DNA of 64,000 nt from an uncultured Candidatus Saccharibacteria bacterium (GTDB taxonomy: Bacteria; Patescibacteriota; Minisyncoccia; Phycocordibacterales; SBAW01), in assembly GCA_964650645.1 (NCBI GenBank), contig CAZYUH010000001.1, positions 411,032 to 475,031 of the forward strand. Reading direction: 5' to 3'. A model generated the notes under the pieces. The model was given only the letters and a program-made list of their open reading frames with translations, was not told the origin of the DNA and ran no database searches. Positions within the stretch are counted from its first letter, which is position 1, and every line of letters starts with the position of its first letter. Shown here piece after piece: positions 3,191-28,900 of the stretch. A program made the position numbers and the translations under genes.

Positions 3191-5422
3191 ATGAATTACA
3201 CCACGTACCTGCGCTGGGGCGTCATTAGCGGCCTGTTCGCGACCCTTTTAATACCGTTCGTCGTCGCCGACGGCACGCTCATGTCCAACCTCTTCTTTCC
3301 GTACATAACGGGCAAGAACTTCGCGTTCCGCATCATCATAGAGATAGTTGCCGCGCTCTATATACTGCTCGCGCTGCGCGATCCAAAGTACCGGCCCCGC
3401 GCCAGCTGGGTCATGTGGGCCGCGCTCGGGCTTACCGCGTGGATGGCCGTGGCGACGCTCGCGTCCGTCGACCCCGTAAAGAGCTTCTGGAGCAACTTCG
3501 AGCGCATGGAAGGGTACGTGAGCCTCCTTCACCTGTTCGCGTACTTCGTCATCATGGGCGCGGTGCTGACCGCCGAGAACCTGTGGGAGCGGTTCTTCAA
3601 CACGTCCATAGGGCTCTCCATGGTCATGGGCGTCTACGCGCTCTTCCAGGGCCTCGAGCTCTTCGGCCTGCACCCGTCCTCGCAGTCCGGCGCCCGCGCC
3701 GACACGAGCTTCGGCAACGCGACGTACCTCGCGGTGTACATGCTCTTCAACATATTCCTGACCCTGTTCATGCTGGCGCGCCGCGCAAAGCTGAGCACGA
3801 CCATGCAGACGGTCTACGGGCTGGCGCTCGTGCTCCAGTGCGCCGGCTTGTACCTGACCCAGACCCGCGGCGCGCTCCTGGGCGCTATCGGCGGCCTCGT
3901 CGTCGCGATGATATGGGTTGCCTGGCGCGCCAAAGAGGGCAAGTGGGCGGGCTTGCGCAAGTGGTCCCTGGGAGGACTGGTCGGCGTGATGGTGCTTGCC
4001 GGCGCGTTCTTCGCCTTCCGCGATACGCTCAAGCAGCAGGGCGGCACGCTGGGCCGTCTCGCCTCCATATCGCTCACCGAAAAGACGACCATCTCCCGCC
4101 TCTTCTATATATGGCCTATGGCGGTCTCCGGCGCGGCCGAGCGCCCTCTGGCCGGGTGGGGGCAGGAGAACTTCAGCTACGTGTTCAACGAGCACTACAA
4201 CCCCGGCATGTGGGACCAGGAGCAGTGGTTCGACCGCGCGCACAACCAGTTCCTCGACTGGATGATAGCGGGCGGCTTCCCGGCGTTCATCGCGTACCTC
4301 GCGCTCTTTGTCCTCGCGGCATGGGCCGTCATCCGCTCGCGCGAGCTTAGCGTGCCCCAGCAGGCGGTACTGCTCGGCCTCCTGGCGGGCTACGCGTTCA
4401 ACAACCTCCTGGTGTTCGATAACCTCACGTCGTCGCTCTGCTTCCTGGCCGTCCTGGCTTTCGTGCACGGGCTGAGCTGGCGCGAGCTTCCGGGCCGCTC
4501 GTGGATGACGCGCCCTGCCGGCCACCACGCGGTAGCCATAGCGGCGCCGGCCGTCATTATCGCCGTTGCCGTCGGAGGGTGGGCGCTCAATGCGCCGGGC
4601 ATCGCGCGCGCGAACGCTCTCGTGCATACCATTTCGCAGACATCGGACCCCGCCGCGACGCTTGAGAACTTCAAGGGGGTGCTCGGCGCCGGCGCGTGGC
4701 CGGGAAGCCCGCTTGGCTACCAGGAAAGCGTCGAGCAGCTCGCGAGCTTCGCCGGCAGCTCCATCGCGCCCTCGCAGGCGCCCGCGGCCGTAAAGCAGGA
4801 GTACTTCGAGGAGTCGGTGTCCGCAATGGATACCCTCATGAATCAGCGCAAGGGCGACGCCCGACTCGAGCTCTTCGCGAGCGGGCTGTACGGCCAGTTC
4901 GGACAGCCGCTCAAGGCCATAGAGCACGCGCAGAAGGCGCTCGAGCTCTCGCCGGGCAAGCAGCAGATACTCTTCCAGCTCGGGCTCTCGTACCTGAGCG
5001 GCGGCGATATTCCCAAGGCGCTCGACGCGCTCAAGCAGGCGTACGACGAGGCTCCGGAGAACGACCAGGCGCTCATCTACTACGCGATGGGCCTCTATTA
5101 CGCCAAGGATACCGCCGCGGCTGACGCGCTCATTGCGGAGCGGTTCGGCTCGACTGCCGTCGACAGCGACCAGCTCCTGCAGGTGTACGGCAACCTCAAG
5201 ATGTACGACCGCGTGATAGCGATATGGAAGATGCGCGTCGAGAAGAATCCCAAGGACTTCAACGCGAACCTGAGCCTCGCGAGCGCCTACTACGCCGCAG
5301 GCGACAAGCCCGCCACTATCGCCCAGCTGAAAGCCATGCAGGTGCTCAATCCTGCGGCGGCGGGCCAGCTTGAGAGCCTTATTACGCAGGTGCAGAACGA
5401 CAATATCATCATCAAGCAATAG
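3191..5422 (+). CDS. O-antigen ligase/PglL-like (Wzy_C) polytopic membrane protein with C-terminal TPR repeats
   Basis: More than 10 predicted TM helices; Wzy_C-like signature LTQTRGALLGAIGGLVVAMIW; C-terminal TPR-like helices (AIEHAQKALELSPGKQQILFQLGLSYL..). Confidence 0.65.
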   Translation: MNYTTYLRWGVISGLFATLLIPFVVADGTLMSNLFFPYITGKNFAFRIIIEIVAALYILLALRDPKYRPRASWVMWAALGLTAWMAVATLASVDPVKSFWSNFERMEGYVSLLHLFAYFVIMGAVLTAENLWERFFNTSIGLSMVMGVYALFQGLELFGLHPSSQSGARADTSFGNATYLAVYMLFNIFLTLFMLARRAKLSTTMQTVYGLALVLQCAGLYLTQTRGALLGAIGGLVVAMIWVAWRAKEGKWAGLRKWSLGGLVGVMVLAGAFFAFRDTLKQQGGTLGRLASISLTEKTTISRLFYIWPMAVSGAAERPLAGWGQENFSYVFNEHYNPGMWDQEQWFDRAHNQFLDWMIAGGFPAFIAYLALFVLAAWAVIRSRELSVPQQAVLLGLLAGYAFNNLLVFDNLTSSLCFLAVLAFVHGLSWRELPGRSWMTRPAGHHAVAIAAPAVIIAVAVGGWALNAPGIARANALVHTISQTSDPAATLENFKGVLGAGAWPGSPLGYQESVEQLASFAGSSIAPSQAPAAVKQEYFEESVSAMDTLMNQRKGDARLELFASGLYGQFGQPLKAIEHAQKALELSPGKQQILFQLGLSYLSGGDIPKALDALKQAYDEAPENDQALIYYAMGLYYAKDTAAADALIAERFGSTAVDSDQLLQVYGNLKMYDRVIAIWKMRVEKNPKDFNANLSLASAYYAAGDKPATIAQLKAMQVLNPAAAGQLESLITQVQNDNIIIKQ

Positions 5423-5689: not shown

Positions 5690-6023
5690 CGGGTGGGGAG
5701 CGGGGCACTCACATTAGGACAATGTTTTGGAGCTCGCCTTCCGCTTCCCACCGGGGGCGTAACACAAAAGAATGCAAACTGCTTTGCATTCTTTTGTTGT
5801 TTACGCCGGCCGGAGGCATGTTTTGCTAGCAGGCAAAACGGCCGAGGCGGGCTGAAGCCGAGAGCACGCAGGCTTCAGGGGCGGAGCGCGACGGCGCGAG
5901 CCAGGGTCGTGCGAATTTTTAGCAAAAAATTACGCCTGACCGCGACCCCGATTGCGCGACCGCGCAATCGGGAGTTGTGGGCAAAGCAAAGGAAAAGACG
6001 CAGGACATCCTGCGTCTTTTTTT
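5690..6023 (+). ncRNA. candidate structured non-coding RNA or regulatory region ending in an intrinsic terminator
   Basis: No credible ORF; a 15-bp perfect hairpin within 5756-5806 and a 12-bp perfect hairpin at 5947-5972, then terminator hairpin plus T7; no match to tmRNA, RNase P or SRP signatures that I can recognise. Confidence 0.2.
5997..6023 (+). terminator. rho-independent terminator
   Basis: gacgcagg-acat-cctgcgtc followed by ttttttt. Confidence 0.7.
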
Positions 6024-6498
6024 GTGCGGCGCGTTCGGCGCTTCAAATTATTTTTCTCATCGCTCAACGCGCAGCGCTATCATCTTCGATTTATTTTTTT
6101 AAAAAAATATTTCTTAAGATTGAATATGAATTTTTTCAAAGTTATCCACATTTAAAAAATAATTTTCATTGTATCTGCAGTTCATATGCTCGATACTTAT
6201 GTCAGTGCATCGAACAAGCGGTTACTGTCTCTCCTAGGGACTCAGATAAGCGCGGTCGAACGATGCGAAACCAAATTACGGCGAAAGCCGAAACTATCAT
6301 GGCAAAAAAGAAAAAGGCCGCAAAGAAGAAGGCCAAGAAGGCCAAGAAGGCTCGCCGCTAAGGCCTGCCACCCGCGCATGTTTTTAGCGCGGGCAATCCT
6401 CTCGAAAGAAAAGCCCCGAATCTTAGGATCGGGGTTTTTCTGTGCCTGCGCGAGGCGGGCGGCGGCCCGTTCCGCATGGCTAAAACGCTAAAAAGTGG

Positions 6499-12571: not shown

Positions 12572-12628
12572 GGGGAGTGCCTTCTACCCGATATATCGGC
12601 ACCCCGTTTTGCGTCTCGGCAAAGCGGG

Positions 12629-13501
12629 GTGTATCATTTATATATGGATGAGCTAGAAATATCGGGAAAGCGACACATCTCGACGCGCCGCGCCGCACGT
12701 GAGCATGGCTATCACAGCGACTACATGGGACAGCTTATCCGCTCCAAGAAAGTGGCCGGACAGAAAGTCGGGCGTTCCTGGTATATAGATGAGGAGTCGC
12801 TCAATGCGTACCTGGGCAAGGCGCCCATGCCTGCGCCTCCCCGCGTGGTAGTCCCGGTCCCGGCAGAAGAGCCGGCCCTAATCAATGATGCGCCCGCGGT
12901 CGCTGAACCGGCGCCGGCCTCCGTTCCCGTCGCTCAGCACGATGCTGTTCCCGCGCCTGAGCCTGTTCCTGTCCGCACAGCCGATGAAGAGGTACCGCAT
13001 CCTGCCGCCCCTTCTTTGGAGTCAGGCGCGGAAATTGAAATACCTGTCACGCGCCTGGTGCAGGTAAGCGGTGTCGAAAGCGCGAGCACCCAAGCGAATG
13101 AGGCAAAAGAGCAGCCGGTACCCGCGCCGCGCCATGCGCAAGAGCCGGTGCGCGCCATATACCACGCCCCTTATATGGAAGAGCAGGAGGCTGTTAGGTG
13201 GCGGGAGACGCGCATACCCGTGCGCGCTTTTGCGCCGGAAGAGCCGCAGAGGGGAGGCTTGCGCTATGCGGCGGATGACTACGTGCATAGCGATGCGATA
13301 TCCGCCAATTCCGAAGCCTTGCAGTCATCCCATCGTCCTGCTCCGGCGCCGCGCAAGCCCTCCTCATTCCCGTACAAGAGCCTCGCATTCGTAGCCTTGC
13401 TTGCGACGGTAGCGTCTGTGTTCGCCTCTAATTTCATATCGACCACCATCGTTTCAGAGCAGGGAAAGTCAGCCACCGTCATCCGCGCTATCCACTGGTA
13501 A
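12629..13501 (+). CDS. tail-anchored membrane protein with N-terminal excisionase-type (HTH_17-like) DNA-binding domain and Pro/Ala-rich linker
   Basis: N-terminal RRAAREHGYHSDYMGQLIRSKKVAGQKVGRSWYIDEESL is homologous to the N-terminus of the giant ORF; C-terminal TM SLAFVALLATVASVFASNFI. Confidence 0.6.
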   Translation: MYHLYMDELEISGKRHISTRRAAREHGYHSDYMGQLIRSKKVAGQKVGRSWYIDEESLNAYLGKAPMPAPPRVVVPVPAEEPALINDAPAVAEPAPASVPVAQHDAVPAPEPVPVRTADEEVPHPAAPSLESGAEIEIPVTRLVQVSGVESASTQANEAKEQPVPAPRHAQEPVRAIYHAPYMEEQEAVRWRETRIPVRAFAPEEPQRGGLRYAADDYVHSDAISANSEALQSSHRPAPAPRKPSSFPYKSLAFVALLATVASVFASNFISTTIVSEQGKSATVIRAIHW

Positions 13502-13559
13502 GCATTCGGGGTCACAATACTGTATTTGTCAAATTACGTTTAAATCAAACAAAAACATA

Positions 13560-13592
13560 CTCCCGTCAAATAATTGACGGGAGTTTTATTTT
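13560..13592 (+). terminator. rho-independent terminator
   Basis: ctcccgtcaa-ataa-ttgacgggag followed by ttttatttt. Confidence 0.7.
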
Positions 13593-13928
13593 GCTTAATG
13601 CGCAAAAAGCCTTATTTATAAACTCTTTTAGCCGAGATATCGGATAGGCTATACGAAAAATGCTTTTTAAATAAAGGAGTACTCGGTAATGCGATTTCAT
13701 GCTTTTTATCGGGTATGTCTTTTGAATGATTAGCGTCAATCGAAAGCGTGGCCGGTGCTAATTTTGGGCTTGATTGAGAGGGTGGCGCCGCGCTAACGCT
13801 GTTTTTATCCTTGCGCTTTTGCGGCTTATTTTCTTCACTTTTTTGACAGAAAAATAAAAAGCCCGGCTTAAAATTATTCATAACTCCGCACACGAACTTT
13901 CCGAGCAAACAAAAGATTTTTCGGCCCT

Positions 13929-16900
13929 ATGACCTCAAGCAAAAAGCTCTTTTCAAAGACCGGCGAGACACTGCTTAACGCCCGAAAGGCCGCCGTTCTT
14001 TTGGAGTGCGCTCCCGACTACGTGAGCCGCTTGTGCCGCGAGGGAAAGATCGAAGGCGTGCGGCACCAGGGCCAGTGGTACATCGACCCTAAGTCGCTTG
14101 AGAGCTTCCGGGCGGGCCGCGATGCGGCGCGCCTTGCGCGCTCAGAAATGCTTTCCGCTGAGCGCCGCAACGAATCGAAGGCGTTCGCCCGGGCTAACGG
14201 CAAAGCGGAGGGAAAGCCCGCGCAAGGCATCATGAGCCGCATTCCGGCAATCCCGCTTTCGCGTCATGCCGCCGCGGCCTTGCTTATAAGCATGCTCCTA
14301 GGCGGCGCGGCGTACGCGTCGAGCGCGGCGTTTTCCGCCGCCCGGGCGCAGCCGGAGGCCCTGTCCGCTTCCGCGGGCCGCATCGAGTCGCCGTTCTTCT
14401 CGACGGTATCGTTTTCCTTCGAGAGCGTATGGCGCGCTATCGCATCGCTGTTCGCTCCGAGCCGCGATGTTGCAGTAGCGCCTTCAATGCAGGCAGACCG
14501 CACGCTGGCTGCGCAGCCGGCGTCGCCCGCCGCACAGCCTGCCGTTGTTGCCGCGACAACCACGCAGACCTTCGTGACGAACACCTATCCCGTTGTGGAG
14601 CGCACGATAGAGCGCACCGTGGAGCGCGCGGTTCCCGCGCAGGCGGCCGACCTTGGCGGCTTCGTTACCTACGACTTCCTCAATGCGCAGATAGACGGCG
14701 TGTACCGTTCTCTGTCGCGGCGCGGCAGCGGAGGCATCGCCGACTTCTCAAGCCTCACCGCCGCCGACATCCCGGCGCTTAACTACCTGCCGCTTACGGG
14801 CGGGACGCTTACGGGCGCGCTTTCCGTGTCGGCCACCTCGACCCTGGCGGGCATCGCGCTTAATGCCGACTGCAGCGCGTACAACAACGGCGGCAAGCTT
14901 ACGACCGATTCCTCGGGCAATGTCGTGTGCGATAACGACACAGCGGGCTCCGGGAGCGGCACCCCGGGCGGTTCTACGGGCCAGGTGCAGTACAACGATG
15001 CGGGCGACTTCGGCGGCGAAGCGGGCTTCACCTACGACGAGGGCGCCAACCGGCTCACTGTGTCTTTCGCCTCGACGACCGGCATTACCGCCGACTACGC
15101 ATCTACGACCAACCTGGTCGTCTCGGGCGTATCAAACGCGCTCTTGAAGACCGTAAACGGGGTCGTGGTGCCCGCCGTCGCCGGCACCGACTACCAGGCG
15201 GCGGGGAACTACGCGACCTTCGCCTACCCGTTCCCCTCGAACGCCACCACCACCTCCATCGCCTTCAACGGCGGCCTCACCGGGGCGCTGACCGGCAACG
15301 CCTCCACCGCCACGGCACTGCAGACCGGCCGCACCATCAACGGCGTCACCTTCGACGGCACGCAGGACATCACCGTAACCGCAGCAAGCTCCACGCTCCT
15401 TGCAAACAACAACACCTTCTCCGGGAACAACACCTTCTCCAACACCATTACCGGCTCAATCACCGGCAACGCGGGCACCGTCACGAACGGCGTGTACACC
15501 ACCACCTTCGGCGGCCTCTTCGCCGGGCAACTCGCGGGCACGACGACCGACGCCTTGGCAGAGGGAAGCGTGAATAAGTACTACACCGACTCGCTGGTGC
15601 AGTCGTACCTCAACGGCGTCGATAAGGGGTTCTTTTTCTCGACAACTTCGGCCGCGTACCAGCTTTCCGTTCTGGATAAGGGCTACTTCTTCTCGACCAC
15701 TTCAGCGGCATACAATCTCTCGACCATAGACAAGGGTTATTTCTTCTCGACGACGTCTGCGGACTACCTGCTGTCCGGCAAGAATTACGCAACCTTCGCG
15801 TACCCGTTCCCCAGCAACGCCACCACCACCCAGCTGGCGCTCAACGGCGGGCTCACTGCGCCGAGCGCGACCATCGCGTACGCGTCGACGACCGCGATAA
15901 CCGCCACGACCGCGAGCACGACCAACCTTGTCATCTCCGGCATCGCTACCGGCTCCACGCAGTGCCTCCAGATAAACTCCTCCGGTACGGTCTCCGGCAC
16001 CGGCTCGGCGTGCGGCTCGGGCGGCGGCGGAAGCATCACGCAAATCGGCCCTGCCGGCCAGATGCAGTCGGGCACGTCCATTACGCTTGCAACCTCGACC
16101 TCGGGCAGCGACTTCACTATTACCGCGGCGGCGGACACCATTACATTCAATTTTCCTATCGCATCGGCTTCCAATACCGGCAAGCTCACTGCGGCCGACT
16201 GGTCGACTTTCAACGATAAGATCTCTTCGACTTCGCTCTCCGCAGGCGCGGGCATCGCGTACAACCCCGCGACCGGCGTCATTACCAACACTATTGGCTA
16301 CCCGTTCCCCAGCAACGCCACCACCACCTCCATCGCCTTCAATGGCGGCCTCACCGGCACGCTCACGGGCTCGCTCGTAGGCAACGCCTCCACCGCCACG
16401 GCCCTCCAGACCCCCCGCACCATCAACGGCGTCACCTTCGACGGCACCTCCAACATCACCGTAACCGCGGCCTCCTCCACGCTCTTGGCGAACAACAACA
16501 CGTTCAGCGGCACCAACACGTTCTCCAACACCATCACCGGCTCAATCACCGGCAACGCGGGCACGGTCACCAACGGCGTGTATACCACGACGTTCAACTC
16601 CCTGTTTGACCCGCGCTTCGCTTCAAGCTTCGCCGGCACCACCACCGACGCACTCGCGGAAGGCTCGACCAACCTCTACTACACCCAAGCCCGTGCCACC
16701 GCGAACTTCATCGCCAACCTCGCGGGCACGTCGAGCGTCGCCTCCATCACCACGCTCCCGAACCTCTCCCTGCCGTCCTCGCAGGTGACGGGCCTGTTCG
16801 CCTACCCGTTCCCATCCAACGCCACTACCACCCAGCTGGCGTTCAACGGAGGCGCCACCTTCGCGGGCGCCACTACGACCGCGCTCGCGGTCACCGGCTC

Positions 16901-19900
16901 CACGACCGTCAGCAGCACGCTCAACGTCGGCGGCGTCATCAACGCCAGCGGCGGGGTAATCGGCAACGTAACCGGCTCCCTGGTGGGCAACGCCTCGACC
17001 GCCACCGCCCTTGAGACCCCTCGCACCATCAACGGCGTCACCTTCGACGGCACGCAGGACATCACCGTCGCCGCCGCGTCCTCGACCCTGCTCACAGACA
17101 ACAATACGTTTAGCGGAAAGACGCTTCTTGCCAATGCCACCACCACGAACCTCGCCGTCACCGGCGTCACTTCGTCGCTCCTTAAAACCTTGAGCAATGG
17201 AGCGGTGGTAGCGGCGGTGGCGGGCACCGACTATGTCGCCAACACGTCCGGCGACTGGACCGGCACGTTCGACGGCCAGGAGGGCAGCTATTACCTCAAT
17301 GCCGCCAACCTCGCGAACTTCGGCGTGCCGTTCTACAATTTCTTCTCGGCGACGACGACGAGCGCGCTTGCGGAGGGGTCCAATCTTTATTACACCGACG
17401 AGCGCGTAGACGACCGCGTCGGCGCGCTCCTGCAGGCGGGCAGCGGCGTCAATCTCACGTATGACGATGGCTCGGATACGCTCACCATATCCGCGACCGG
17501 CGGAGGCGGAGGCGGCACCGACGTCAACTGGACGTACTTCAACGGCTCGACCATACGCCCGGCAACGAGCACCAACCAGGTGCTTGTCGGCGGGACGTCG
17601 ACTTCGACGCTCGTCTCGCCGTTCGCCAAGCTCGGCGTCTTGGGCGGCGCGTCCATAGACTACGCCTCGACGACCGGCATCACCGCTTCGTACGCGTCGA
17701 CGACGGACCTTGTTATATCGGGAATCCCGAACGGAATCCTTAAGACCGTAAACGGCGTCGTGACCGCCGCTACCGCGGGCGTCGACTACCTCACGAGCGG
17801 CAGCAGCTTCGCGTATCCGTTCCCATCCAACGCCACCACCACCCAGCTGGCGTTCAACGGAGGCGCCACCTTCGCGGGCGCCACTACGACCGCGCTCGCG
17901 GTCACCGGCTCCACGACCGTCAGCAGCACGCTCAACGTCGGCGGCGTCATCAACGCCAACGGCGGGGTAATCGGCAACGTAACCGGCTCGCTGACCGGCA
18001 ACGCCTCCACCGCCACGGCCCTCCAGACCCCCCGCACCATCAACGGCGTCACCTTCGACGGCACCTCCAACATCACCGTAACCGCGGCCTCCTCCACGCT
18101 CTTGGCGAACAACAACACGTTCAGCGGCACCAACACGTTCTCCAACACCATCACCGGCTCAATCACCGGCAACGCGGGCACGGTCACCAACGGCGTGTAC
18201 ACCACCACCTTCGGCGGCCTGTTCGCGGGGCAGCTCGCGGGTACCACGACCGACGCGCTGGCGGAAGGCTCGGCCAACCTCTACTACACCCAAGCCCGCG
18301 CCACCGCGAACTTCATCGCGAACCTCGCGGGCACGTCGAGCGTCGCCTCCATCACGACGCTCCCGAATCTCTCCCTGCCGTCCTCGCAGGTGACGGGCCT
18401 GTTCGCCTACCCGTTCCCCTCGAACGCCACCACCACCCAGCTGGCGTTCAACGGGGGATTGAGCGCGACGACCATCACGGCAGATGCGGCCACCTCCACC
18501 AGCCTCTTCGGCGGCCGCGTCACGGGCAGCACGGCGAGCTTCGGCGCGACCGCGACCTCGTCGTTCAGCTCCGCGGGCGCCCTCACGCTCGCCAATCTCT
18601 CGAACGCGGTGCTCGCGGTCAACGCCCAGGGCCAGGTCGTCGCCACGTCCTCGATCGGCATGAGCCAGCTCACGGGCACCCTCGGCGTCCCCAACGGCGG
18701 CACCGGTTCGACCACGCTCGGCGGCCTCCTCATCGGCAACGGCACCGGCGCTATCGCCTCGGCTGCGGTCACGGGCCCCCTCTCGTTCTCGGGCACCACG
18801 CTCTCCATCGCGCAGGCCACGGGCGCGCAGAGCGGCTATCTCTCGTCGGCTGACTGGTCGACATTCAACGGCAAGGTATCCTCTTCGTCGCTTTCTTCAG
18901 CGAACGGCTACCTCACGTACAACGGCTCGACCGGCGTCTTCACCGCCTCCACGTCGCCGACCTACGCGGCCGCGACTTCGACGGCCTTCAGGACGACGTC
19001 GCTCACTATCGGCACGCTCACCGGCCTTCTCAAGGCCAGCAGCGGGGCGGTGGCGGCGGCGGTGGCGGGCACCGACTACGAGAACCCGCTGACCTTCAGC
19101 TATCCGCTCCAGCGCACGGTTAATGCCGTCTCGCTCGCGTTCGGCACCACCACCTCCAACACGTGGGCCGGCACGCAGACCTTCACGAACGCGCCGCGCC
19201 TCGGTACCCTGACCGGCCTCGTCGGCGCCAACAACGGCACGCTCTACCAGATCTCCACCTCCACCAGCTTCGTGACGTCGCTCACTGCGGGCGCCGGCAT
19301 CTCGCTCTCGGGCGCCACGGGCGCGGTCACCGTCACCAACGCCATCGGCTATCCGTTCCCGTCCAACGCCACCACCACGCAGATCGCGTTCAACGGGGGA
19401 GCGACCTTCGCGGGCGCGACCACGACCGCGCTCGCGGTCACGGGCTCCACGACCGTCTCGGGCGTCCTCAACGCCGGCGGCGTGGTGAACGCCAACGGCG
19501 GCGTTACCGCGGCGGGAGCCTCGACCATCGCCTCCACTACGCTCACCGGCAGGACGCTGCTTTCGAATGCGACCTCTTCTTCTATATATACGCCGGTGCT
19601 CGGCGTGAACGGCGAGTACTTCACCAACCTCACCGGCGCGGGCCTGCAGAACGTCGGGGGCGCGCTCACGCTCGATACGGCGGGCGACTGGACCGGCACG
19701 TTCGACGGCCAGGAGGGGAGCTATTACCTCGCCAACTCCTTCTCGACCACGAGCGCCGCGTACTTCAGCTCGCTGGGCCTCGCGTTCTCCACTACGTCCA
19801 GCGACTACTGGCTTTCCCAGAAGACCACCGGCAATCTCGCCGAGGGTTCTAATCTGTACTTCACGAACGCGCGCGCCGACGCCCGCATCGCCGCCGCTAC

Positions 19901-22900
19901 CAGCACGGTACGCGGGATGGTCTCGGCCTCGGGCCCGCTCTCGTACAACTCCTCGACCGGCATCTTCTCCATCTTCCAGGCCGGCGCGGGCCAGGACGGC
20001 TACCTCTCGTCTGCCGACTGGTCCGCCTTCAACGGCAAGCTCTCCAGCTCATCCATCGACACCTCCACCGAGCTCGCGTCGCTCATCGGCGACGAGACCG
20101 GCACGGGCGCGCTCGTATTCGGCACGGGCGCGACGCTGGCTTCCACGACGCTGTCGGGCAGCACGCTGCTCTCGAATGCCACCACTACGAACCTCGCCAT
20201 CACCGGCGTTACGTCGTCCTTGCTGAAGACCCTGGCAAACGGAGCGGTCGTGCCCGCCGTCGCCGGCAGCGATTACCTGACCAGCGCCACTATCTACCAG
20301 TACCCGTTCCCGAACAACGCGACGTCGACCCTCATAGCGTTCAACGGCGGCATTACCGCCGCCGCCTCGACGCTGTCCTCCACGACGCTTTCCGGCAGCA
20401 CGCTCCTTTCCAACGCGACGACGACCTCGCTCGGCTTCTCGGGGCTCGCCTCGACCCTGCTTAAGACCAACGCGCAGGGGACGGTGGTCGCCGCGAACGC
20501 CGGCACCGACTACGAGAATCCGCTCACATTCTCGACGGGCCTCAGCCGCATCGGGGACGTGGTGTCCAACAGCGGCGTCACGTCGGCGACCGGCACCCTC
20601 AACCAGATCAGCGTCAGCGCGAATACCGGCAATATAACCTTCTCGCTCCCGTCGCTCGTCAATCTCACCAACCTCACGGTCGCTGCGGCCACCACGACGA
20701 ACTCGTTCACGTCCGGCGCGCTGAGCGCTTCGACGGCGCGCTTCGGCTCGACGGCCACCACGACTATCGACGCGGCGGGCAACCTCGCGGTCGCGGGCAC
20801 CTTCGACGGCGCGGGCCTCGCGTCCTGCAGCGGCACCGCCGACAAGCTCCTGTGGAACGCGGGCGTGTTCTCCTGCGGCGTCGATTCCGGTTCCGGCGGC
20901 GGCACCAGCGAGATAAACTGGACCTGGTTCAACGGCTCGGCGGTCCGCGTCTCGACCTCGACCAACCAGGTGCTCATCGGCACCAACGCCACCTCGACGC
21001 TCGCCAAGCTCGAGGTGGTGGGCGGCGTCTTTACCGACAATGCGACCTCCACCGCGAGCCTGTTCGGCGGCCGCATAACGGGCAACAGCGCGGCGTTCGG
21101 CACGACCGCGTCGACCACCATCGACGCGCTGGGCAACGTGGGCATCGGCTCGACGACGCCGTCGGCGCGCCTCGCGGTCGTGGGCGGAAACATACTGCAG
21201 ACCGCGTCCGGCGATCCCAAGCTGGTCGCTTCAAGCGCGCTCGGCCACCGTACCTATGCCACGGCCGTATCGGGCCGGTACGCCTATGTCGCCAACGAGA
21301 CCGGGGGCCTGCGCATCCTCGATATCTCGAACCCGGCGGCTCCGGTCGTGACCGGCTCGTTCGCGTACAACGGCGGGTCTTCGGCAGCTATATCCATAGC
21401 GGTCGCGGGCCAGTACGCGTACGTCGGCGACAACGCCATAGGCCTCGTTATCATCGATGTCTCCAACCCGGCCGCGCCCTCGGTCGTGAGCACGAGCGCT
21501 ATCGTCAACGATCCGTGGAACCTCGCGCTTTCCGGCAAGTACCTGTACGTGGCGGACGGCAATGCCAAGGCGCTCAAGATAATAGACGTCTCCAACCCGG
21601 CCGCGCCGGTGGTGGCCGGCTCTTTCGTCTCCGGCGGCTCGACCCAGCCGCAGGCCGTGGCGGTAGCGGGCAAGTACGCGTACATGAGCGACGCCTCGCT
21701 GGGCAACATATATATAGTAGACATCTCGAACCCCACGGCGCCCGCCCTGACCGCCACCTACGCATCGGGCGGCTCTCCGATGAGCCTGTACGCTTCGGGC
21801 AAGTACCTGTACGTGGCGGACCTCGTAAACGGCTTTTATTCGCTCAATGTCAGCAATCCCAATGCTACCCCGACGCTGGTCGGCAGCTATGCGGGCTCGC
21901 ACTACGGCGTAGCGGTCGCGGGCCAGTACGCCTACATCGCCAACGACGCGGGCCACGAGCTGACCGTGCTCGACCTTGCCAACCAGTCGAGCCCGGCGCT
22001 GGTGGGCGGCGTCGATGTCGGCGACGAGGCGCTCGGCATCACCATGGCGGGCAAGTACGCCTTCATCGCTGCCAACCTCAACGGCCTCGCGGTCGTCGAC
22101 GTGAACGGCGCGAGCTTCCCGGCCGCGAACATCGCGAGCCTCCAGAGCGGCATGGCGAACATCGCCGACGCGCTCACCGTGGGCGGCAATATATACGCCG
22201 GCGGCGGGCTCGATGTCGGCGTATCGGGCATCTACAGCCGCGGCACAATCGCCGCCTACGTCGCGAGCTCGACCGAGCTTAATCCCGTCGTGGCGACCTT
22301 CATGGGCGGCAACGTCGGGATAGGCACTACCTCGCCGTTCGCAAAGCTCTCGGTCGGCGGCAGCGGATTCTTCGGCGGCTCGCTCACCGCGAGCAGTATA
22401 ACCGCGAGCACGTCGGCCTCGCTCGCTTCGACGACGCTTGTAGGGAACACGCTCCTCTCTAACGCAACGACGACATCGTTTGCGATTTCCGGCATTTCGG
22501 GCGCGCTTCTTAAGACCCTCGCAAACGGCGCGGTCGTCCCGGCGGTGGCGGGCACCGACTACGCTTCGCCGTCGGATATCTTCGCCTACCCGTTCCCGTC
22601 AAACGCCACCACCACCCAGCTGGCGTTCAATGGGGGATTGAGCGCGACGACCATCACGGCGAACGCCGCGACCTCGACGTCGCTCTTTAGCGGCCGCGTC
22701 ACGGGCAACACGGCGAGCTTCGGCGCGACCGCGACCTCGTCGTTCTCGAGCAACGGCACGCTCAGCCTCGCGGGGCTCTCAAGCGCCCTGCTTTCCACAG
22801 ACGCCTCCGGCGCCGTCGTCGCTACCACTACGCTCTCCACTAACTACCTCTTCGGGCACCTCGGATTCATCAACGGCGTGGCGTTCAGCGCGGGCGGCAG

Positions 22901-25900
22901 CAGCATCATCACCGCCGCCTCCTCCACGCTCTTGGCGAACAACAATACCTTCAGCGGAACCAACACCTTCTCTAATATCATCACCGGCTCCGTGTCCGGC
23001 AATGCGGGGACCGCCACGGCCCTCCAGACCCCCCGCACCATCAACGGCGTCACCTTCGACGGCACCGGAAACATAGTGATTACTGCGGCATCCTCTACTT
23101 TGCTTGCAAACAACAACACGTTCAGCGGCACCAACATCTTCAGCAACACGATCAACGGCTCCATCACCGGCAACGCGGGCACGGTGACCAACGGCGTGTA
23201 CACCACCACCTTTGGCGGCCTGTTCGCGGGGCAGCTCGCGGGCACGACGACCGACGCGCTGGCGGAAGGCTCGGCCAACCTCTACTACACCCAAGCCCGC
23301 GCCACCGCGAACTTCATCGCGAACCTCGCGGGCACGTCGAGCGTCGCCTCCATCACGACGCTCCCGAACCTCTCCCTGCCGTCCTCGCAGGTGACGGGCC
23401 TGTTCGCGTATCCGTTCCCCAGCAACGCCACCACCACCTCCATCGCCTTCAACGGCGGCCTCACCGGCACGCTCACGGGCTCGCTCGTAGGCAACGCCTC
23501 CACCGCCACGGCCCTCCAGACCCCCCGCACCATCAACGGCGTCACCTTCGACGGCACCTCCAACATCACCGTAACCGCGGCCTCCTCCACGCTCTTGGCG
23601 AACAACAACACGTTCAGCGGCACCAACACGTTCTCAAATACCATCAACGGCTCCATCACCGGCAACGCGGGCACGGTGACCAACGGCGTGTACACCACGA
23701 CGTTCAACTCGCTCTTCGACCCGCGCTTCGTCACTCAGCTCGCGGCAACCTCCTCAATCGCGAGCATCACCACCTTGCCGAACCTCTCGCTCCCGTACTC
23801 CCAGCTCACGGGCACGCCCGCCATCGCGGGCTACCCGTTCGCAGGGGCAGGGAACTCGACCTCGACGCTGACCCAATTCAACGGCGGCCTGACCGCGTAC
23901 GCGAGCTCGACCATCGGCAACGGCACGGCAACCGGCGGCCTCACCGTCAGCGGTAATGCGACGACGACCGGCAATGCGTACATTGCCGGCAATCTAACCG
24001 CAGCCGGAACCGTGGCGGCAAACGGCGTATCCACGGCGATGATAAGGGACGCATCAAGCGTCAGCGCCTTGGATATAGCGAATAGGAGGCTGCTGGATTC
24101 CGGCACGGTCAATGCTCTGGATTTCAGCTCCGCTTCAAGCATCAAGCTCACTCAATACACTTCAAACGGCTTCCTCAAGACTTCAGGCGGCAATGGAACC
24201 TTGTCTGTCGATACGACGATATCGACATCTGGCGGCAATGTCGGCATCGGCACCACTAGCCCGTACGCAAAGCTTTCTGTCGCAGGCCAAGTCGTCGCGG
24301 CAAGCTTCGTGGGTACTACCACCGCTACCTCTACGCTTGGTGGTGGTATGAATATCGCCTCGGGCTGCTACGCCGTAAACGGCACGTGCCTCTCTGCGGC
24401 AAGCCTCGGCGCCTCCACCTTCGCCTACCCGTTCCCCTCGAACGCCACCACGACCCAGATCGCGTTCAACGGCGGCGCCACCTTTGCCGGCGCCACCACG
24501 ACCGCGCTCGCAGTGACCGGCTCGACCACCGTCTCCTCGGTCCTCAACGTCGGCGGCGTAATCAACGCCAACGGCGGCATCACCGCCGGTACGTACAACG
24601 CATCCGGCGCGTCATCGACCGTCCTGTCGCTTAGCGGCCAGGCGCTGCTCTCAGCCTCGAGTACCACCAGTTCCGTCTTCCTGGGGCTGAACTCGGGTGC
24701 GTTGAACCAGTCGACCGGCGTCTATAACAGCGGCCTCGGCGCCGGCGCGCTCGCTTCCAACACCACCGGTACCCGCAACAGCGCCTTCGGCTTCGCGACC
24801 CTCGTCTCCAACACCAGCGGCGCCGGCAACACCGCCGCGGGCTTCCAGTCCATGCAGTCAAACACTGTCGGCATTAATAACAGCGCCTTCGGCTACAATT
24901 CGCTCGCCACCAACAGCTACGGCGTCTACAACACCGCGGTCGGCTCCCATTCGCTTTTTGCAAATACTAGCGGCGTCTACAACACCGCCAGCGGCTACGC
25001 CTCCCTCGTCTTCAACAGCTACGGCACCTTCAATAGCGCCTTCGGCTCCCAGGCGCTCTACAACAACGGCAGCGGATCCTACAACAGCGCCTTCGGCTAC
25101 TTCGCGGGGAAGACCAACACTGTCGGCACTTCAACGACTCTGGTCGGCTCCTTCAGCGACGTCGCGGCGAACAATCTCTCCACTTCGACCGCCATCGGCG
25201 CCGGCGCCGTGGTTAGCGCGAGCAACTCCTTGGTTCTCGGCGGCCTGGGGCAGAGCAGCGTGCTCGCGGGCGTGGGCACGACGACGCCGTTCGCGCGCTT
25301 CAGCATCCAGGCGAACCCGACCGACTCCGTTCCCAATGCCATGCTCTTCGCCATCGGCTCATCGACCGCGAGCGCGACCACCACGCTCTTCTCGGTCTCC
25401 AACACCGGTTCCACTACCGCGCAGAACGGCATCAATATCGCCAACGGCTGCTACGCCGTAAACGGCGCCTGCCTCTCGGCGGCGACGTTCGGCGCGTCGA
25501 CCTTCGCCTACCCGTTCCCATCCAACGCCACCACCACCTCCATCGCCTTCAACGGCGGCCTCACCGGCACGCTCACGGGCTCGCTCGTAGGCAACGCCTC
25601 CACCGCCACGGCCCTCCAGACCCCCCGCACCATCAACGGCGTCACCTTCGACGGCACCGGAAACATAGTGATTACTGCGGCATCCTCTACTTTGCTTGCA
25701 AACAACAACACGTTCAGCGGCACCAACACGTTCTCCAACACCATCAGCGGCTCAATCACCGGCAACGCGGGCACGGTCACGAACGGCGTCTATACCACGA
25801 CCTTTGGCGGCCTGTTCGCGGGGCAGCTCGCGGGTACCACGACCGACGCGCTGGCGGAAGGCTCGGCCAACCTCTACTACACCCAAGCCCGCGCCACCGC

Positions 25901-28900
25901 GAACTTCATCGCCAACCTCGCGGGCACGTCGAGCGTCGCCTCCATCACGACGCTCCCGAACCTCTCCATACTCTCCTCGCAGGTCTCCGACCTGGCGACG
26001 ACGATCGGCGCCGCGTACCCGTTCGCGCTGGCGGGCAACGCGACCTCGACCCTGACGCAGTTCAATGGAGGCCTCACCGCGTACGCATCCTCGACCATCG
26101 GCAACGGCACCGCGGGCCTCACCGTCTCCGGCAACTCGACCACGACCGGCACCGCGTACTTCGTGGGCAACGTGGGCATCGGTACGACTTCGCCGTTTGC
26201 AGCGCTGTCGGTACAGGGCGCTTCATCGCAAGCCGCCGCGACAAATGCCCCTGTTGCCTTTTCGGTACTTGGCGGTACGGGCTCGACTACGGGCCTGGGA
26301 GGCGCAATTGCCCTTACTGGAGGCACTGGCGGCAATGGCGTTGGTGGTAGTGGCGGAGGCATTTCCCTGACAGGTGGAAATAGCGGAGGAGGCATAGCTT
26401 CTGCGGGAGGAACAGTCGCTCTTTCTGCAGGCAATGGAGGAGGCGCTACTCCCGGCGCCGGCGGCGCTTTGACGATCTCCGGAGGAATAGCTTCAGGAAA
26501 CGCCGGAGGCATCGTAATTAGTTCGGGAAGCGCCAATATTGCCGCATCAAACACCTCCGGCGGAAACATAACCATGATAGCGGGCAACGGCGGCGGTGCA
26601 GGTTCAGTAGGTGCTGGAGGAAGCTTCACTTTTAACAGCGGCAGCGGCAATGTGGGCTCTGCCTCGCAGGCGGCCGGCAGCTTTACCTTTAACGGCGGCA
26701 GCGCCGGAGCCTCTAAGCAGGGAGGCAGCTTTGCCTTTAACGGAGGCGCCGGCTCGACAACCGGCAACGGCGGTGATTTCTCGATTACCGGGGGTACGGG
26801 CGGCAACTCGGCAGGATCGCGCGGCGGCAACATCACTTTGAATCCTGGCGCAGCAGGGACGAGCGGCGCGGTTGGCAATGTGCTGCTGGCAACCTTAAAC
26901 GGCAATGTCGGCATAGGCACCACCAGCCCGTACGCCAAGCTTTCTGTCGCTGGCTCGGTCGTAGCCGCCAGCTTCGTGGGCACCACCACCGCAACCTCTA
27001 CGCTCGGCGGCGGCATGGACATCGCTACCGGCTGCTACGCCATCAACGGAACCTGCCTCTCGGCGGCAAGCCTCGGCGCCTCGACCTTCGCGTACCCGTT
27101 CCCCTCGAACGCGACCTCCACCTCAATCGCGTTCAGCGGCGGGCTGACCGGCACGCTCACGGGCTCCCTGGTGGGCAACGCCTCCACCGCCACGGCGCTG
27201 CAGACCGGCCGCGCGATCAACGGCGTCACCTTCGACGGCACTTCCAACATCACCGTCACCGCGGCGTCCTCGACGCTCCTCGCCAACGACAACACGTTCT
27301 CGGGCACCAACACGTTCAGCAACACCATCAGCGGCTCCATCACCGGCAACGCCGGCACCGTCACCAACGGCGTATACACGACCACGTTCAACGGCCTGTT
27401 CGACAATCGCCTCTCGGCCTCGTCGTCGATCGCGGGCATCACGACGCTGCCGAACCTCTCGCTGCCGGCTTCGCAGGTCACCGGGCTTGCGGCCTACCCG
27501 TTCCCGTCCAACGCCACCACCACGCAGATCGCGTTCAACGGCGGGCTGACGGCGTATGCCTCGACCACTATCGGCAATGGCACCGCGATCGGCGGCCTTA
27601 CCATCAGCGGCGGCGCGACGACGACGGGCACCGCGTACTTCGCGGGCAATGTGGGCATCGGCACCTCTTCTCCCTACCAGGCGCTCTCCGTGGTCGGCAG
27701 CACTACGCTCCAGGCCAATGCTGCGGCGGCTTATTCCTGGACCAACGCCTCGCAGCCGGAGGGCGTGACGCTCCGCATCGGAGCCGATGGCTCTAGCGTA
27801 GCCGGCCTCCTGATACAGGGCTCCAATAGCGGGGCAGGCATAACCGATTACCTGTCCGTATACAATCGCTTCGGCACGAGGCTCTTTGGCGTGACCGATA
27901 GCGGGGTCGGTATCGGAGGCAATACCAGGCTGACCGTCGGCCCGGGCTTTGCATCCGGCGCATCGCTAAACCCGACCGGCGTAAACGACTACAGCATATT
28001 CGGCTCTTCGGCGACAAGCACGCCTGCTCAGCTCATATGGGACGCGCGCCGAGGCACGTTCTACGAAGACAGGACCACCCCGATCCTGCGCTTTGCGGGC
28101 AATGTTGGAGGAGGCAATAGCCCGATTATCGGGGAATCCGTCGGAGGCATAAACATACTCAATGCCAGCACGACGCGCGGACTTTCCTTCGCCAGCTACG
28201 CGTCGAGCACCGGCCAGTTCATCGAGAACTTCCGCATACTCTCGACCGGCAACACCGGCTTCGGCACCTCCAGTCCTTTCGCCAAGCTCGCCGTGCAGGC
28301 CGGCGACGGCGATACGGCGACGACGCTCTTCGCTATCGGCTCTTCGACCGCGAGCGCGACCACCACGCTCTTCTCGGTCTCCAATACCGGCTCGACCACC
28401 ATCCAGAACGGCGTCAACATCGCCGGCGGCTGCTACGCCGTCAACGGCACCTGCCTTTCGGCGGCAACGTTCGGCGCCTCGACCTTCGCCTACCCGTTCC
28501 TCAGCAACGCCACATCGACGACGCTCACGTTCTCGGGAGGACTGCTCGCGACCGCGTCCTCGACCTTCTCGGGCCAGCTCAATCTGGGCGGCACTGCGGC
28601 GAATATCGCGCTCGGCTCCAACTACCTCTCCGGCGACGGCGGCGACGAGGGCGTATTCGTGAACTCCGGCGGCGACGTCGGCATCGGCACCAACGGCCTC
28701 ATTTCAAGCCACGTGCTGACAGTGGCGGGCAACCAGTACCTCTCCGGCGGGCTTGGCGTAGGCGGCGGCAATACGGTGCCGGGTTCGGCGCACATCTACG
28801 GCTCTGCCGGCGATGCGACGTCGCTCACGATTGATGCGCCCAACGCGTCCAGCGCGTCGGCGCTGAACATAAGCGGGCCGTCGAGCGGGAAGGCGTTCGC

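Follow-up and report, generated by a model that had tools for sequence, protein, structure and literature searches.

Why does a giant fibre-like surface protein of Patescibacteria share a winged-helix N-terminus with its small membrane-anchored neighbour? A possible membrane-tethered DNA-binding pair

Why should a protein of 6,001 amino acids (aa), most of which resembles a surface fibre, begin with the same DNA-binding-type fold as the small membrane protein encoded just before it? The question is raised by two adjacent genes in a stretch of 64,000 nucleotides (nt), hereafter the window, that spans positions 411,032-475,031 of the forward strand of contig CAZYUH010000001.1 (assembly GCA_964650645.1). 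The window has a GC content of 64% and derives from a genome of the Patescibacteria, or candidate phyla radiation (CPR), of the Parcubacteria/Paceibacteria type. These bacteria are ultra-small, mostly uncultivated episymbionts, and their host attachment and nucleoid organisation are poorly understood. We refer to the two products as the small protein and the giant. Their N-termini are homologous and, as modelled, both are divergent winged helices of the MerR/Xis/BldC class; each protein has one membrane segment, and the two genes stand side by side in every locus that we examined. Our tentative answer, one that we lean towards without counting on it, is that they form a membrane-tethered DNA-binding pair, for which nucleoid anchoring and transcription regulation are both possible outcomes.

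The shared domain and the proteins that carry it

Are the two N-termini related at all? The first-pass annotation, made from the letters of this DNA alone, had claimed a homologous block at the head of both proteins, and both sequences that it quoted are located in the window where it placed them. The homology is clear. BLASTP matches the small protein to giant residues 1-200 (E 2e-5), a hidden Markov model built from giant-type N-termini finds the small protein (E 1.7e-11), and the reciprocal model finds the giant (E 4.5e-5). Aligned profile to profile by hhalign, the small and giant families match over 51 ungapped columns (98.2% probability, E 3.8e-14). The shared block is not low-complexity, and both models find only two copies of the domain in the 64 kb, those of the small protein and the giant.

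Where does each gene begin? The open reading frame (ORF) finder gave 12629-13501 (plus strand, GTG start, 290 aa) and 13929-31934 (plus strand, ATG start, 6,001 aa). The first-pass annotation took over the former as a 290-aa protein; the gene stands, its start and length do not. The GTG was the choice of the ORF finder, and the small-protein homologues (n=221, Patescibacteria only) each begin MDELEISGK. Because all orthologues begin MDELE, the small protein probably starts at the ATG at 12644, which gives 285 aa. A -10-like TATCAT lies 7-10 nt 5' of this ATG, so near that the mRNA is probably leaderless. Named members of the small protein's own cluster are called "hypothetical protein," and the NCBI name for one fragment is "helix-turn-helix domain-containing protein." The parts of the two proteins are as follows, with confidence in AlphaFold models given as the predicted local distance difference test (pLDDT).

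12644-13501, plus strand: gene of the small tail-anchored protein, 285 aa, with 221 homologues that all start MDELE
12644-12814, plus strand: small winged helix as modelled, residues 1-57 (beta-hairpin, alpha1 14-21, alpha2 25-33, wing 39-49, alpha3 50-57)
12815-13372, plus strand: small disordered linker, residues 58-243, rich in Ala, Pro, Val, and Glu (pLDDT 42-58, no secondary structure)
13373-13498, plus strand: small transmembrane helix, residues 244-264, and conserved tail of ~20 aa, external by prediction and a predicted beta-hairpin
13929-31934, plus strand: gene of the giant surface protein, 6,001 aa, rich in Thr, Gly, Ala, Ser, and Asn; orthologues of 4,300-8,000 aa at the same position
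13971-14117, plus strand: giant winged helix as modelled, residues 15-63 (alpha1 18-25, alpha2 29-38, beta-hairpin wing 43-52)
14088-14195, plus strand: giant long helix, residues 54-89, Arg/Glu-rich, which extends alpha3; R64, R71, and R79 are conserved (invariant)
14262-14342, plus strand: giant transmembrane segment, a predicted signal anchor with the N-terminus inside (N-in), residues 112-138, the only such segment; G125 is invariant
14385-14399, plus strand: giant ESPFF motif, residues 153-157, ~15 residues outside the membrane segment
21264-21362, plus strand: best-scoring of seven LVIVD repeats in the ectodomain (Pfam LVIVD, E 5.5e-58)
31044-31214, plus strand: Peptidase_S74 intramolecular chaperone, residues 5706-5762, near the C-terminus (Pfam, E 2.7e-13), with SDIRLKTD visible

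What fold do the domains have? The AlphaFold models were built from family alignments that are shallow (24-25 sequences). Small residues 1-57 reach pLDDT 81-94; giant residues 10-90 reach 91-98 (96-98 for residues 15-63), and a short strand precedes alpha1. Structure prediction, by which the first-pass annotation had proposed to check its idea of an HTH_17/Xis-like fold, thus returned a winged helix in both proteins: alpha1-turn-alpha2, a beta-hairpin wing, and alpha3, which superpose on solved members of the MerR/Xis/BldC type. For both domains the top PDB matches by Foldseek are BldC, mycobacteriophage Pukovnik Xis, the tandem winged helix-turn-helix (wHTH) protein TraN, RacA, and the RdfS excisionase. 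The giant's domain matches BldC (6amk_B) with a TM-score of 0.84 and a root-mean-square deviation (rmsd) of 1.3 A; the best match of the small domain is Pukovnik Xis (4j2n; TM-score 0.74, rmsd 1.2), and Xis matches across both domains score 0.74-0.75. Foldseek probabilities are 0.9-1.0, and the E-values are weak because the domain has only ~50 residues.

Within this class, to which family do the domains belong? Pfam HTH_17 (PF12728) matches giant residues 1-200 with 29.8 bits (E 7e-7), above its gathering cut-off of 27, and the match is borderline in that it drops to 25.0 bits if a 3,000-aa piece is scanned. The small protein scores 18.8 bits (E 2e-3), below the cut-off, and is tied to the HTH_17 family only via homology to the giant's domain and its fold. 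The relatives P0001 and P0002 carry precomputed PF12728 annotations. No MerR Pfam model matches at E <= 1, and the classical MerR plan, with an antiparallel coiled-coil dimerisation helix and an effector domain at the C-terminus, is also contradicted by the giant's long helix, which runs towards the membrane segment, and by the disordered linker of the small protein.

The earlier label "excisionase-type" is right for the fold and wrong for the identity. The excisionase model TIGR01764 scores the domains at 15.4 and 12.3 bits, far short of its cut-off (28.8), PHROG excisionase matches are weak (E 3e-4 to 1e-3), no integrase occurs in the gene tables inspected, and the genes lie in a conserved housekeeping neighbourhood, not in a mobile element; we therefore rejected an excisionase or recombination directionality factor. 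A defence-system or phage origin was likewise rejected: PADLOC returned a weak mad1 HTH match, the PHROG matches were those just mentioned, and the synteny is chromosomal. We also discarded a metal or redox site at Cys27 and Cys36, which are near-invariant in the giant's domain, as these positions align with the buried hydrophobic core of HTH_17 and BldC (V23, A32 in the latter).

How are the domains held at the membrane? Each protein has one hydrophobic segment (small 242-270, giant 117-135), modelled as a helix at residues 244-264 and 112-138, respectively, so that the single membrane span and the tail anchor of the small protein noticed earlier are both borne out. The N-side flank of the small protein's helix carries a charge of +3, consistent with the positive-inside rule, and the N side of the giant's segment is basic. 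As there are no signal peptides and the N-side flanks are positive, both winged helices are probably cytoplasmic, and the giant is best taken as an N-in signal-anchored fibre. In one respect the first-pass annotation was mistaken: the giant's membrane segment does not follow the winged helix directly, since helix 54-89 and a linker of ~20 residues lie in between. Hydrophobic positions are few in that helix, which is why we take it for a lone charged helix more readily than for a coiled coil.

In the small protein, residues 58-243 are predicted to be disordered; members of the RacA/RocS/RicO family have a central coiled coil that oligomerises. Alignment A1 shows conserved short motifs there, [ED]x[RK]IP[IV][HR] and GLRYxxDDxPxxP (~13256-13294), the latter with L206 invariant and Y208 nearly so; they are presumably docking sites for cytoplasmic partners.

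Beyond its membrane segment, the giant shows ESPFF, of which S154, P155, F156, and F157 are invariant across six aligned orthologues and which is present in further sequences. An ectodomain of ~5,860 aa, rich in Thr, Gly, Ala, Ser, and Asn, follows. The Peptidase_S74 domain implies a trimer like that of a phage tail fibre, and we describe the ectodomain as trimeric-fibre-like on this predicted basis. In the C-terminal part of the giant (31044-31934), Peptidase_S74 is followed by the motif LCLEDVCITKTELQNLL, common to the short paralogues P0200 and P0274, and then by Gly-rich and Pro/Glu-rich tails. Most ectodomain Cys residues come in close pairs, chiefly at i and i+7.

A constant gene pair and the conserved DNA around it

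How general is the arrangement? The order gatB, small gene, spacer of 430-540 nt, giant gene was seen in every case examined, ~80 Paceibacteria loci, with both domains always present. The loci comprise six metagenome/genome loci obtained by exact protein look-up (giants of 4,319-7,968 aa), 62 species-representative genomes (Adlerbacteria, Nomurabacteria, Paceibacterota, Minisyncoccia) where downstream DNA existed, and ~20 further metagenome contigs. Upstream of the small gene in the window are secA, a dsbD-like gene, obg, and gatB, and the synteny secA...obg-gatB-small-giant is kept across the ~80 loci. The first-pass annotation had suggested looking for the domain at the N-termini of other giant proteins, and it is there: giant residues 1-150, searched exhaustively with phmmer, brought up 1,098 cluster representatives, of which many are 1,000-5,800 aa long with the module N-terminal. 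A word-indexed protein search, which gave 2 and 34 matches for the giant N-terminus, lacked the sensitivity for this.

Median identity to the window is 70% for the small winged helix, 65% for GatB from the same loci, 50% for the giant winged helix, and 27% for the small C-terminus. In the small domain nearly every residue is conserved, the MDELEISGK hairpin included. A conservation like that of GatB, and the presence of the pair in practically all loci that we examined, fit a core role in the cell.

The module also varies in number and in what it carries. Some giants have two units of winged helix and charged helix before the membrane segment (P0125, P0129, P0131, P0139, P0205), and in the loci with such tandem giants (L017, L043, L049, L053, L057, L077, L087, L089) the small gene still adjoins. 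P0216 and P0220 are separate proteins of ~310 aa with two tandem small-type units. In two Nomurabacteria (L060, 3992-4867; L064, 3945-4949), a protein of only 291-335 aa with the same N-terminus (winged helix, helix, membrane segment, SPFF) occupies the giant position, and in L060 this short "giant" is followed by separate secreted proteins; the module therefore anchors ectodomains of very different size. Finally, paralogous proteins of 250-380 aa with the same helix-turn-helix (HTH), helix, and transmembrane plan (P0280, P0286, and a gene of L072) are encoded directly 3' of a ~205-aa Peptidase_M50 gene and 5' of rpsL on three divergent contigs (L070, 7257-8750; L071, 5140-6826; L072, 3286-5071). 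This linkage to a site-2 protease hints at regulated intramembrane proteolysis for the domain family. It holds only for the paralogous family in L070-L072, and the window contains no Peptidase_M50 gene.

What lies between the genes? The spacer between small and giant genes is conserved far more than protein divergence predicts, and we list the elements of the window here.

12588-12599, no strand assigned: perfect 12-bp palindrome CCGATATATCGG, 45 nt 5' of the small ATG, a candidate protein-binding site
13502-13534, no strand assigned: bipartite motif GGGGTCAC-N11-TGTCAAAT, directly after the small-gene stop
13559-13592, plus strand: hairpin and T-run that resemble an intrinsic terminator, which would end the small-gene transcript, with equivalents in other loci
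13623-13643, no strand assigned: conserved block CTCTTTTAGCCGAGATATCGG with the near-palindrome CCGAGATATCGG inside, a candidate operator
13839-13928, plus strand: putative giant promoter and 5' untranslated region (5'UTR) elements TTGACAG, TTAAAAT, CGAACT, and AAACAAAAGATTTTTCGG, conserved across distant loci

Across related loci, the candidate DNA motifs include CCGAKATMTCGG, GTCAT-N11-GTCAAA, and TATCCACA. In the 64 kb, 12-mers of the form CCGAKAT/ATMTCGG occur only twice, at 12588-12599 and 13632-13643, and so flank the small gene. Across 60 spacers, 130 CCGAKAT sites were observed against 5.4 +/- 2.5 in dinucleotide shuffles. CCGATATATCGG has its position 5' of the small gene solely in the window's own clade (window, L003, L010). 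Elsewhere the CCGAGATATCGG-type site is a perfect palindrome in some loci, and in L001 and L057 its orientation is reversed, as would suit a site on DNA, since any RNA pairing would be broken; in the spacer, the palindrome lies ~240 nt 5' of the putative giant promoter. Directly after the small stop, [GA]TCA[TCA]-N11-12-[GA]TCAA, the general form of GTCAT-N11-GTCAAA, is found in 35 of 60 loci as against 2% of control windows. A frequent form within it is GGCGTCA, which may resemble the half-site of the Bacillus subtilis RacA ram motif.

A -10-like box and the 5'UTR elements CGAACT and AAACAAAAGnnTTTCGG recur upstream of giant genes. The giant ATG has no Shine-Dalgarno sequence before it; CGAACT...AAACAAAAGATTTTTCGG is there instead (13891-13928) and is kept in distant lineages. 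The CGAA and TTCG before this ATG could pair, and no variation in them was seen.

The third motif, TATCCACA, stands ~95 nt before the giant ATG, always in one orientation, in 53 of 60 spacers (L001-L069, L076-L097), at a density of 1.65 per kb in spacers vs 0.05 per kb elsewhere. It also occurs 60 nt 5' of the paralogous genes in L070 (7941) and L072 (3941), and heads a conserved leader 5' of secA. As the motif is identical to the DnaA-box core, DnaA is the obvious alternative binder. A replication origin was rejected, as there are just one or two boxes per spacer.

Two further explanations of the 430-nt spacer were tried and set aside. For an RNA element, Rfam returned noise below threshold, and the one stem that RNAalifold proposed for 21 aligned blocks was a trivial 3 bp without covariation; the flipped palindrome speaks against it as well. 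For a conserved small ORF, the only "peptide" is an in-frame translation of the giant 5'UTR that has no start codon. With no conserved ORF, Rfam family, or supported RNA structure, the conserved blocks are best read as protein-binding or promoter DNA.

The secA leader deserves a brief description of its own. In the window, a perfect DnaA-box 9-mer, GTTATCCACA (6141-6150), stands at the head of a conserved ~150-nt leader, after which come a 20-aa Lys-rich micro-ORF, MAKKKKAAKKKAKKAKKARR (6299-6361), a hairpin, and secA (6511). The arrangement (6141-6361 in the window) recurs in L003 (~3378-3600), L005 (~629-960), and L007 (~3602-3800). The 222-aa ORF at 5693-6361 of the ORF list is probably an over-extension. 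It is speculation that MAKKKKAAKKKAKKAKKARR might be a SecM-like leader peptide that regulates secA.

What the pair may do

How would a membrane-tethered DNA-binding pair work? The winged helices at the cytoplasmic ends of both proteins would bind DNA, and the pair would bridge nucleoid and membrane. On the small side this would involve the winged helix, a long flexible cytoplasmic linker, and the C-terminal membrane anchor; on the giant side, the winged helix, a rigid charged helix, the membrane segment, and an ectodomain of 5,860 aa that is trimeric-fibre-like. Candidate binding sites would be the conserved motifs around the small gene and 5' of the giant gene.

The first-pass annotation had offered a docking module and a membrane-tethered regulator as functions; our evidence leans towards DNA binding. 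Several observations favour this reading. The conserved motifs, for which neither an ORF nor a supported RNA fold accounts, count here, as do the GatB-like conservation of the small winged helix and the constancy of the pair. The close structural neighbours of both domains (BldC, Xis, TraN, RacA, and RdfS) are all DNA binders. In the BldC-DNA complex, R30 reads a base, K26 contacts a base, and K33 and K36 also make contacts (PMC5859096). In the hhalign register, the giant has Lys or Arg at residue 34, the position of BldC R30, and this residue is basic in all 23 of 23 sequences; its R37 and K40 stand at the positions of K33 and K36, and both are invariant. In the small protein R33, K36, and a basic wing are retained, with K41, G43, and R44 invariant in the wing. 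Net charge is positive, with a median of +4 for alpha2 and wing of the small protein and +3 for the giant's HTH. TraN carries two wHTH domains. BldC binds DNA as head-to-tail multimers (PMC5859096). The tandem winged helices of some giants echo both, and we counted them in favour of DNA binding. There is also precedent for the outcome: RacA, RocS, and RicO, each of which joins a MerR-type wHTH at the N-terminus to a means of reaching the membrane, serve to anchor origins, and RicO has one of its sites beside its own gene, upstream of ricO (10.64898/2026.03.06.710092).

It is important to set against this a number of points that weigh in the other direction. An invariant Asp occupies the position of BldC K26 in both families, Gln is invariant at the R30 position of the small protein, and the wing of the giant has no basic tip. 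Within the 12-bp palindrome the half-sites stand only ~6 bp from each other, which would be awkward for two HTH units on one DNA face. As a DnaA-box sequence, TATCCACA may simply serve DnaA; moreover, it is absent from the window's own spacer (13502-13928), although the winged helix there is unchanged. The small linker is predicted to be disordered, where RocS and RicO have a coiled coil. Finally, no solved DNA binder could be reached by sequence, whether from single sequences or from profiles A1, A3, and A9 against PDB sequences (even at E <= 10), and hhalign of the domain to the BldC sequence gives just 49% probability (E 1.8e-4).

Could the domains have lost DNA binding? This is the main rival, and we rate it as somewhat unlikely. 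The winged helices would dock the small protein to the giant's foot, or both to a conserved cytoplasmic partner in the manner of RodZ, and would cluster or stabilise the fibre base. The departures from BldC just listed, Asp or Gln where BldC reads bases and a non-basic wing tip, are what such a module might show, and the near-total conservation of the small domain through its N-terminal hairpin suggests several interaction surfaces. It would also suit docking that the two homologous domains always come from adjacent genes, that conserved juxtamembrane external elements (the small tail hairpin, the giant ESPFF) could pair, and that BldC-type domains form head-to-tail protein contacts (PMC5859096). 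However, basic residues are kept at the K33, K36, and R30 positions with a positive net charge, the structural neighbours all bind DNA, and docking leaves the conserved DNA motifs beside the genes unexplained.

Those motifs are the starting point of another explanation, which we consider unlikely: that the two proteins are sequence-specific membrane-tethered transcription factors, like ToxR and TcpP or like substrates of intramembrane proteolysis. Whether the winged helices act at the small and giant promoters would depend on the state of the fibre, namely on contact, shearing, or a cut near ESPFF, and they would act from the membrane or once a site-2 protease has freed them. Palindromic and repeated motifs do lie near both promoters, and TATCCACA keeps a fixed distance 5' of giant genes and of the paralogous genes, although the motifs vary or, as with TATCCACA in the window, vanish while the small winged helix stays the same, and the distance of the spacer palindrome from the putative giant promoter (~240 nt) does not help. 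Proteolysis would be in keeping with the paralogues directly 3' of a Peptidase_M50 gene at three divergent loci, the invariant Gly in the membrane segment, and the placing of ESPFF, such that only a short stub would remain after a site-1 cut; against it, the window has no M50 gene. Two cooperating bitopic wHTH proteins have a precedent in ToxR and TcpP, but the winged helix here is of another type than the OmpR type of ToxR.

A more far-reaching version of DNA binding, which we regard as quite doubtful, is that the giant host-contact fibre and its tail-anchored partner both hold DNA at the motif array in and around their own locus, so that one polypeptide would wire the cell surface to the chromosome, a Patescibacteria-specific device for outside-in signalling and anchoring that needs no two-component system. 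The DNA could be held at CCGAGATATCGG, at GTCAT-N11-GTCAAA, and perhaps at TATCCACA, a motif found also at the head of the secA leader. When the fibre makes contact, comes under tension, or is lost, this would act without intermediary on how the chromosome is anchored, or on how strongly the fibre and its export machinery are expressed. The winged helices would do so in place or once freed by a site-2 protease, a release at which the M50-linked paralogues would hint.

Least probable, and in our view very unlikely, is a topogenic or retention plug with no ligand, in which a cytoplasmic domain that folds fast would, with the stiff charged helix behind it, hold the protein N-in and stop the membrane segment from being pulled out: positive charges do lie on the N side of the segment and the same module does precede ectodomains from ~150 aa to >7,800 aa, as a generic anchor would, but a plug cannot explain why the most conserved copy sits on a separate tail-anchored protein with almost no ectodomain, nor the invariant surface residues R37, K40, D30, and Y31.

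Why does the choice matter? Every related (Parcubacteria-type) genome examined has this gene pair, one partner is a surface fibre of 4,000-8,000 aa, and both cytoplasmic ends have, as confidently modelled, a DNA-binding-type fold. The pair may form a physical connection between cell surface and chromosome. Without DNA binding, the domains would add to the examples of HTHs turned into docking modules close to the membrane. In both events, constructs of only 60-95 aa and defined DNA motifs are at hand.

Comparison with known systems

The searched literature on CPR bacteria does not describe the module. Membrane-anchored HTH proteins and MerR-type chromosome anchors are already known; what is new is this fold type on a true transmembrane anchor, the obligatory pairing, the fusion to giant surface fibres, and the presence of the pair in every related CPR genome examined. 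It is therefore worthwhile to compare the pair with four known systems.

RodZ is a bitopic protein whose cytoplasmic N-terminal HTH is a membrane-tethered interaction module that binds MreB, and the pair resembles it in placing such a domain on a bitopic membrane protein. Its HTH is of the XRE type, and it has a linker and an extra domain outside the membrane, whereas the domains here have no HTH_25/XRE match in Pfam.

ToxR, TcpP, and CadC resemble the giant in their N-terminal cytoplasmic winged helix, single membrane segment, and extracytoplasmic C-terminal part, a layout that the giant has by prediction. ToxR and TcpP cooperate at one promoter, and both are subject to site-2 proteolysis. 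Their winged helices are of the OmpR/PhoB type (Trans_reg_C), for which no Pfam match was found here, and their outer sensor domains are small, in contrast to the 5,860-aa fibre of the giant.

BldC, Pukovnik Xis, and RdfS (HTH_17) have the closest fold, with TM-scores of 0.74-0.84 and rmsd of 1.2-1.6 A over 47-52 residues and the same order of secondary structure. This fold tends to work as tandem or head-to-tail units, which the tandem copies in some giants recall. These are, however, small soluble proteins, whereas the domain here is fused to membrane anchors and has no integrase or mobile element near it.

In layout, the small protein resembles RocS of Streptococcus pneumoniae, RicO of Staphylococcus aureus, and RacA of B. 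subtilis, which likewise begin with a winged helix of the MerR type and end with a membrane-targeting element, a cytoplasmic spacer lying in between (10.64898/2026.03.06.710092). RacA is among the Foldseek matches of the domains here (TM-score 0.52-0.62); this likeness is at the fold level only, as profiles A1, A3, and A9 did not retrieve RacA (5i44) from PDB sequences (A9 even at E <= 10). The small protein has a true transmembrane helix, whereas the known anchors use an amphipathic helix or DivIVA binding, and its linker is predicted to be disordered and is rich in Pro, Ala, and Glu, unlike the coiled coil of RocS and RicO. It is also paired with a giant surface protein of the same domain, and it belongs to the Patescibacteria, not the Firmicutes. 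If DNA is bound, chromosome-membrane anchoring of the RocS/RicO/RacA type would reach beyond the Firmicutes and be tied to a surface appendage.

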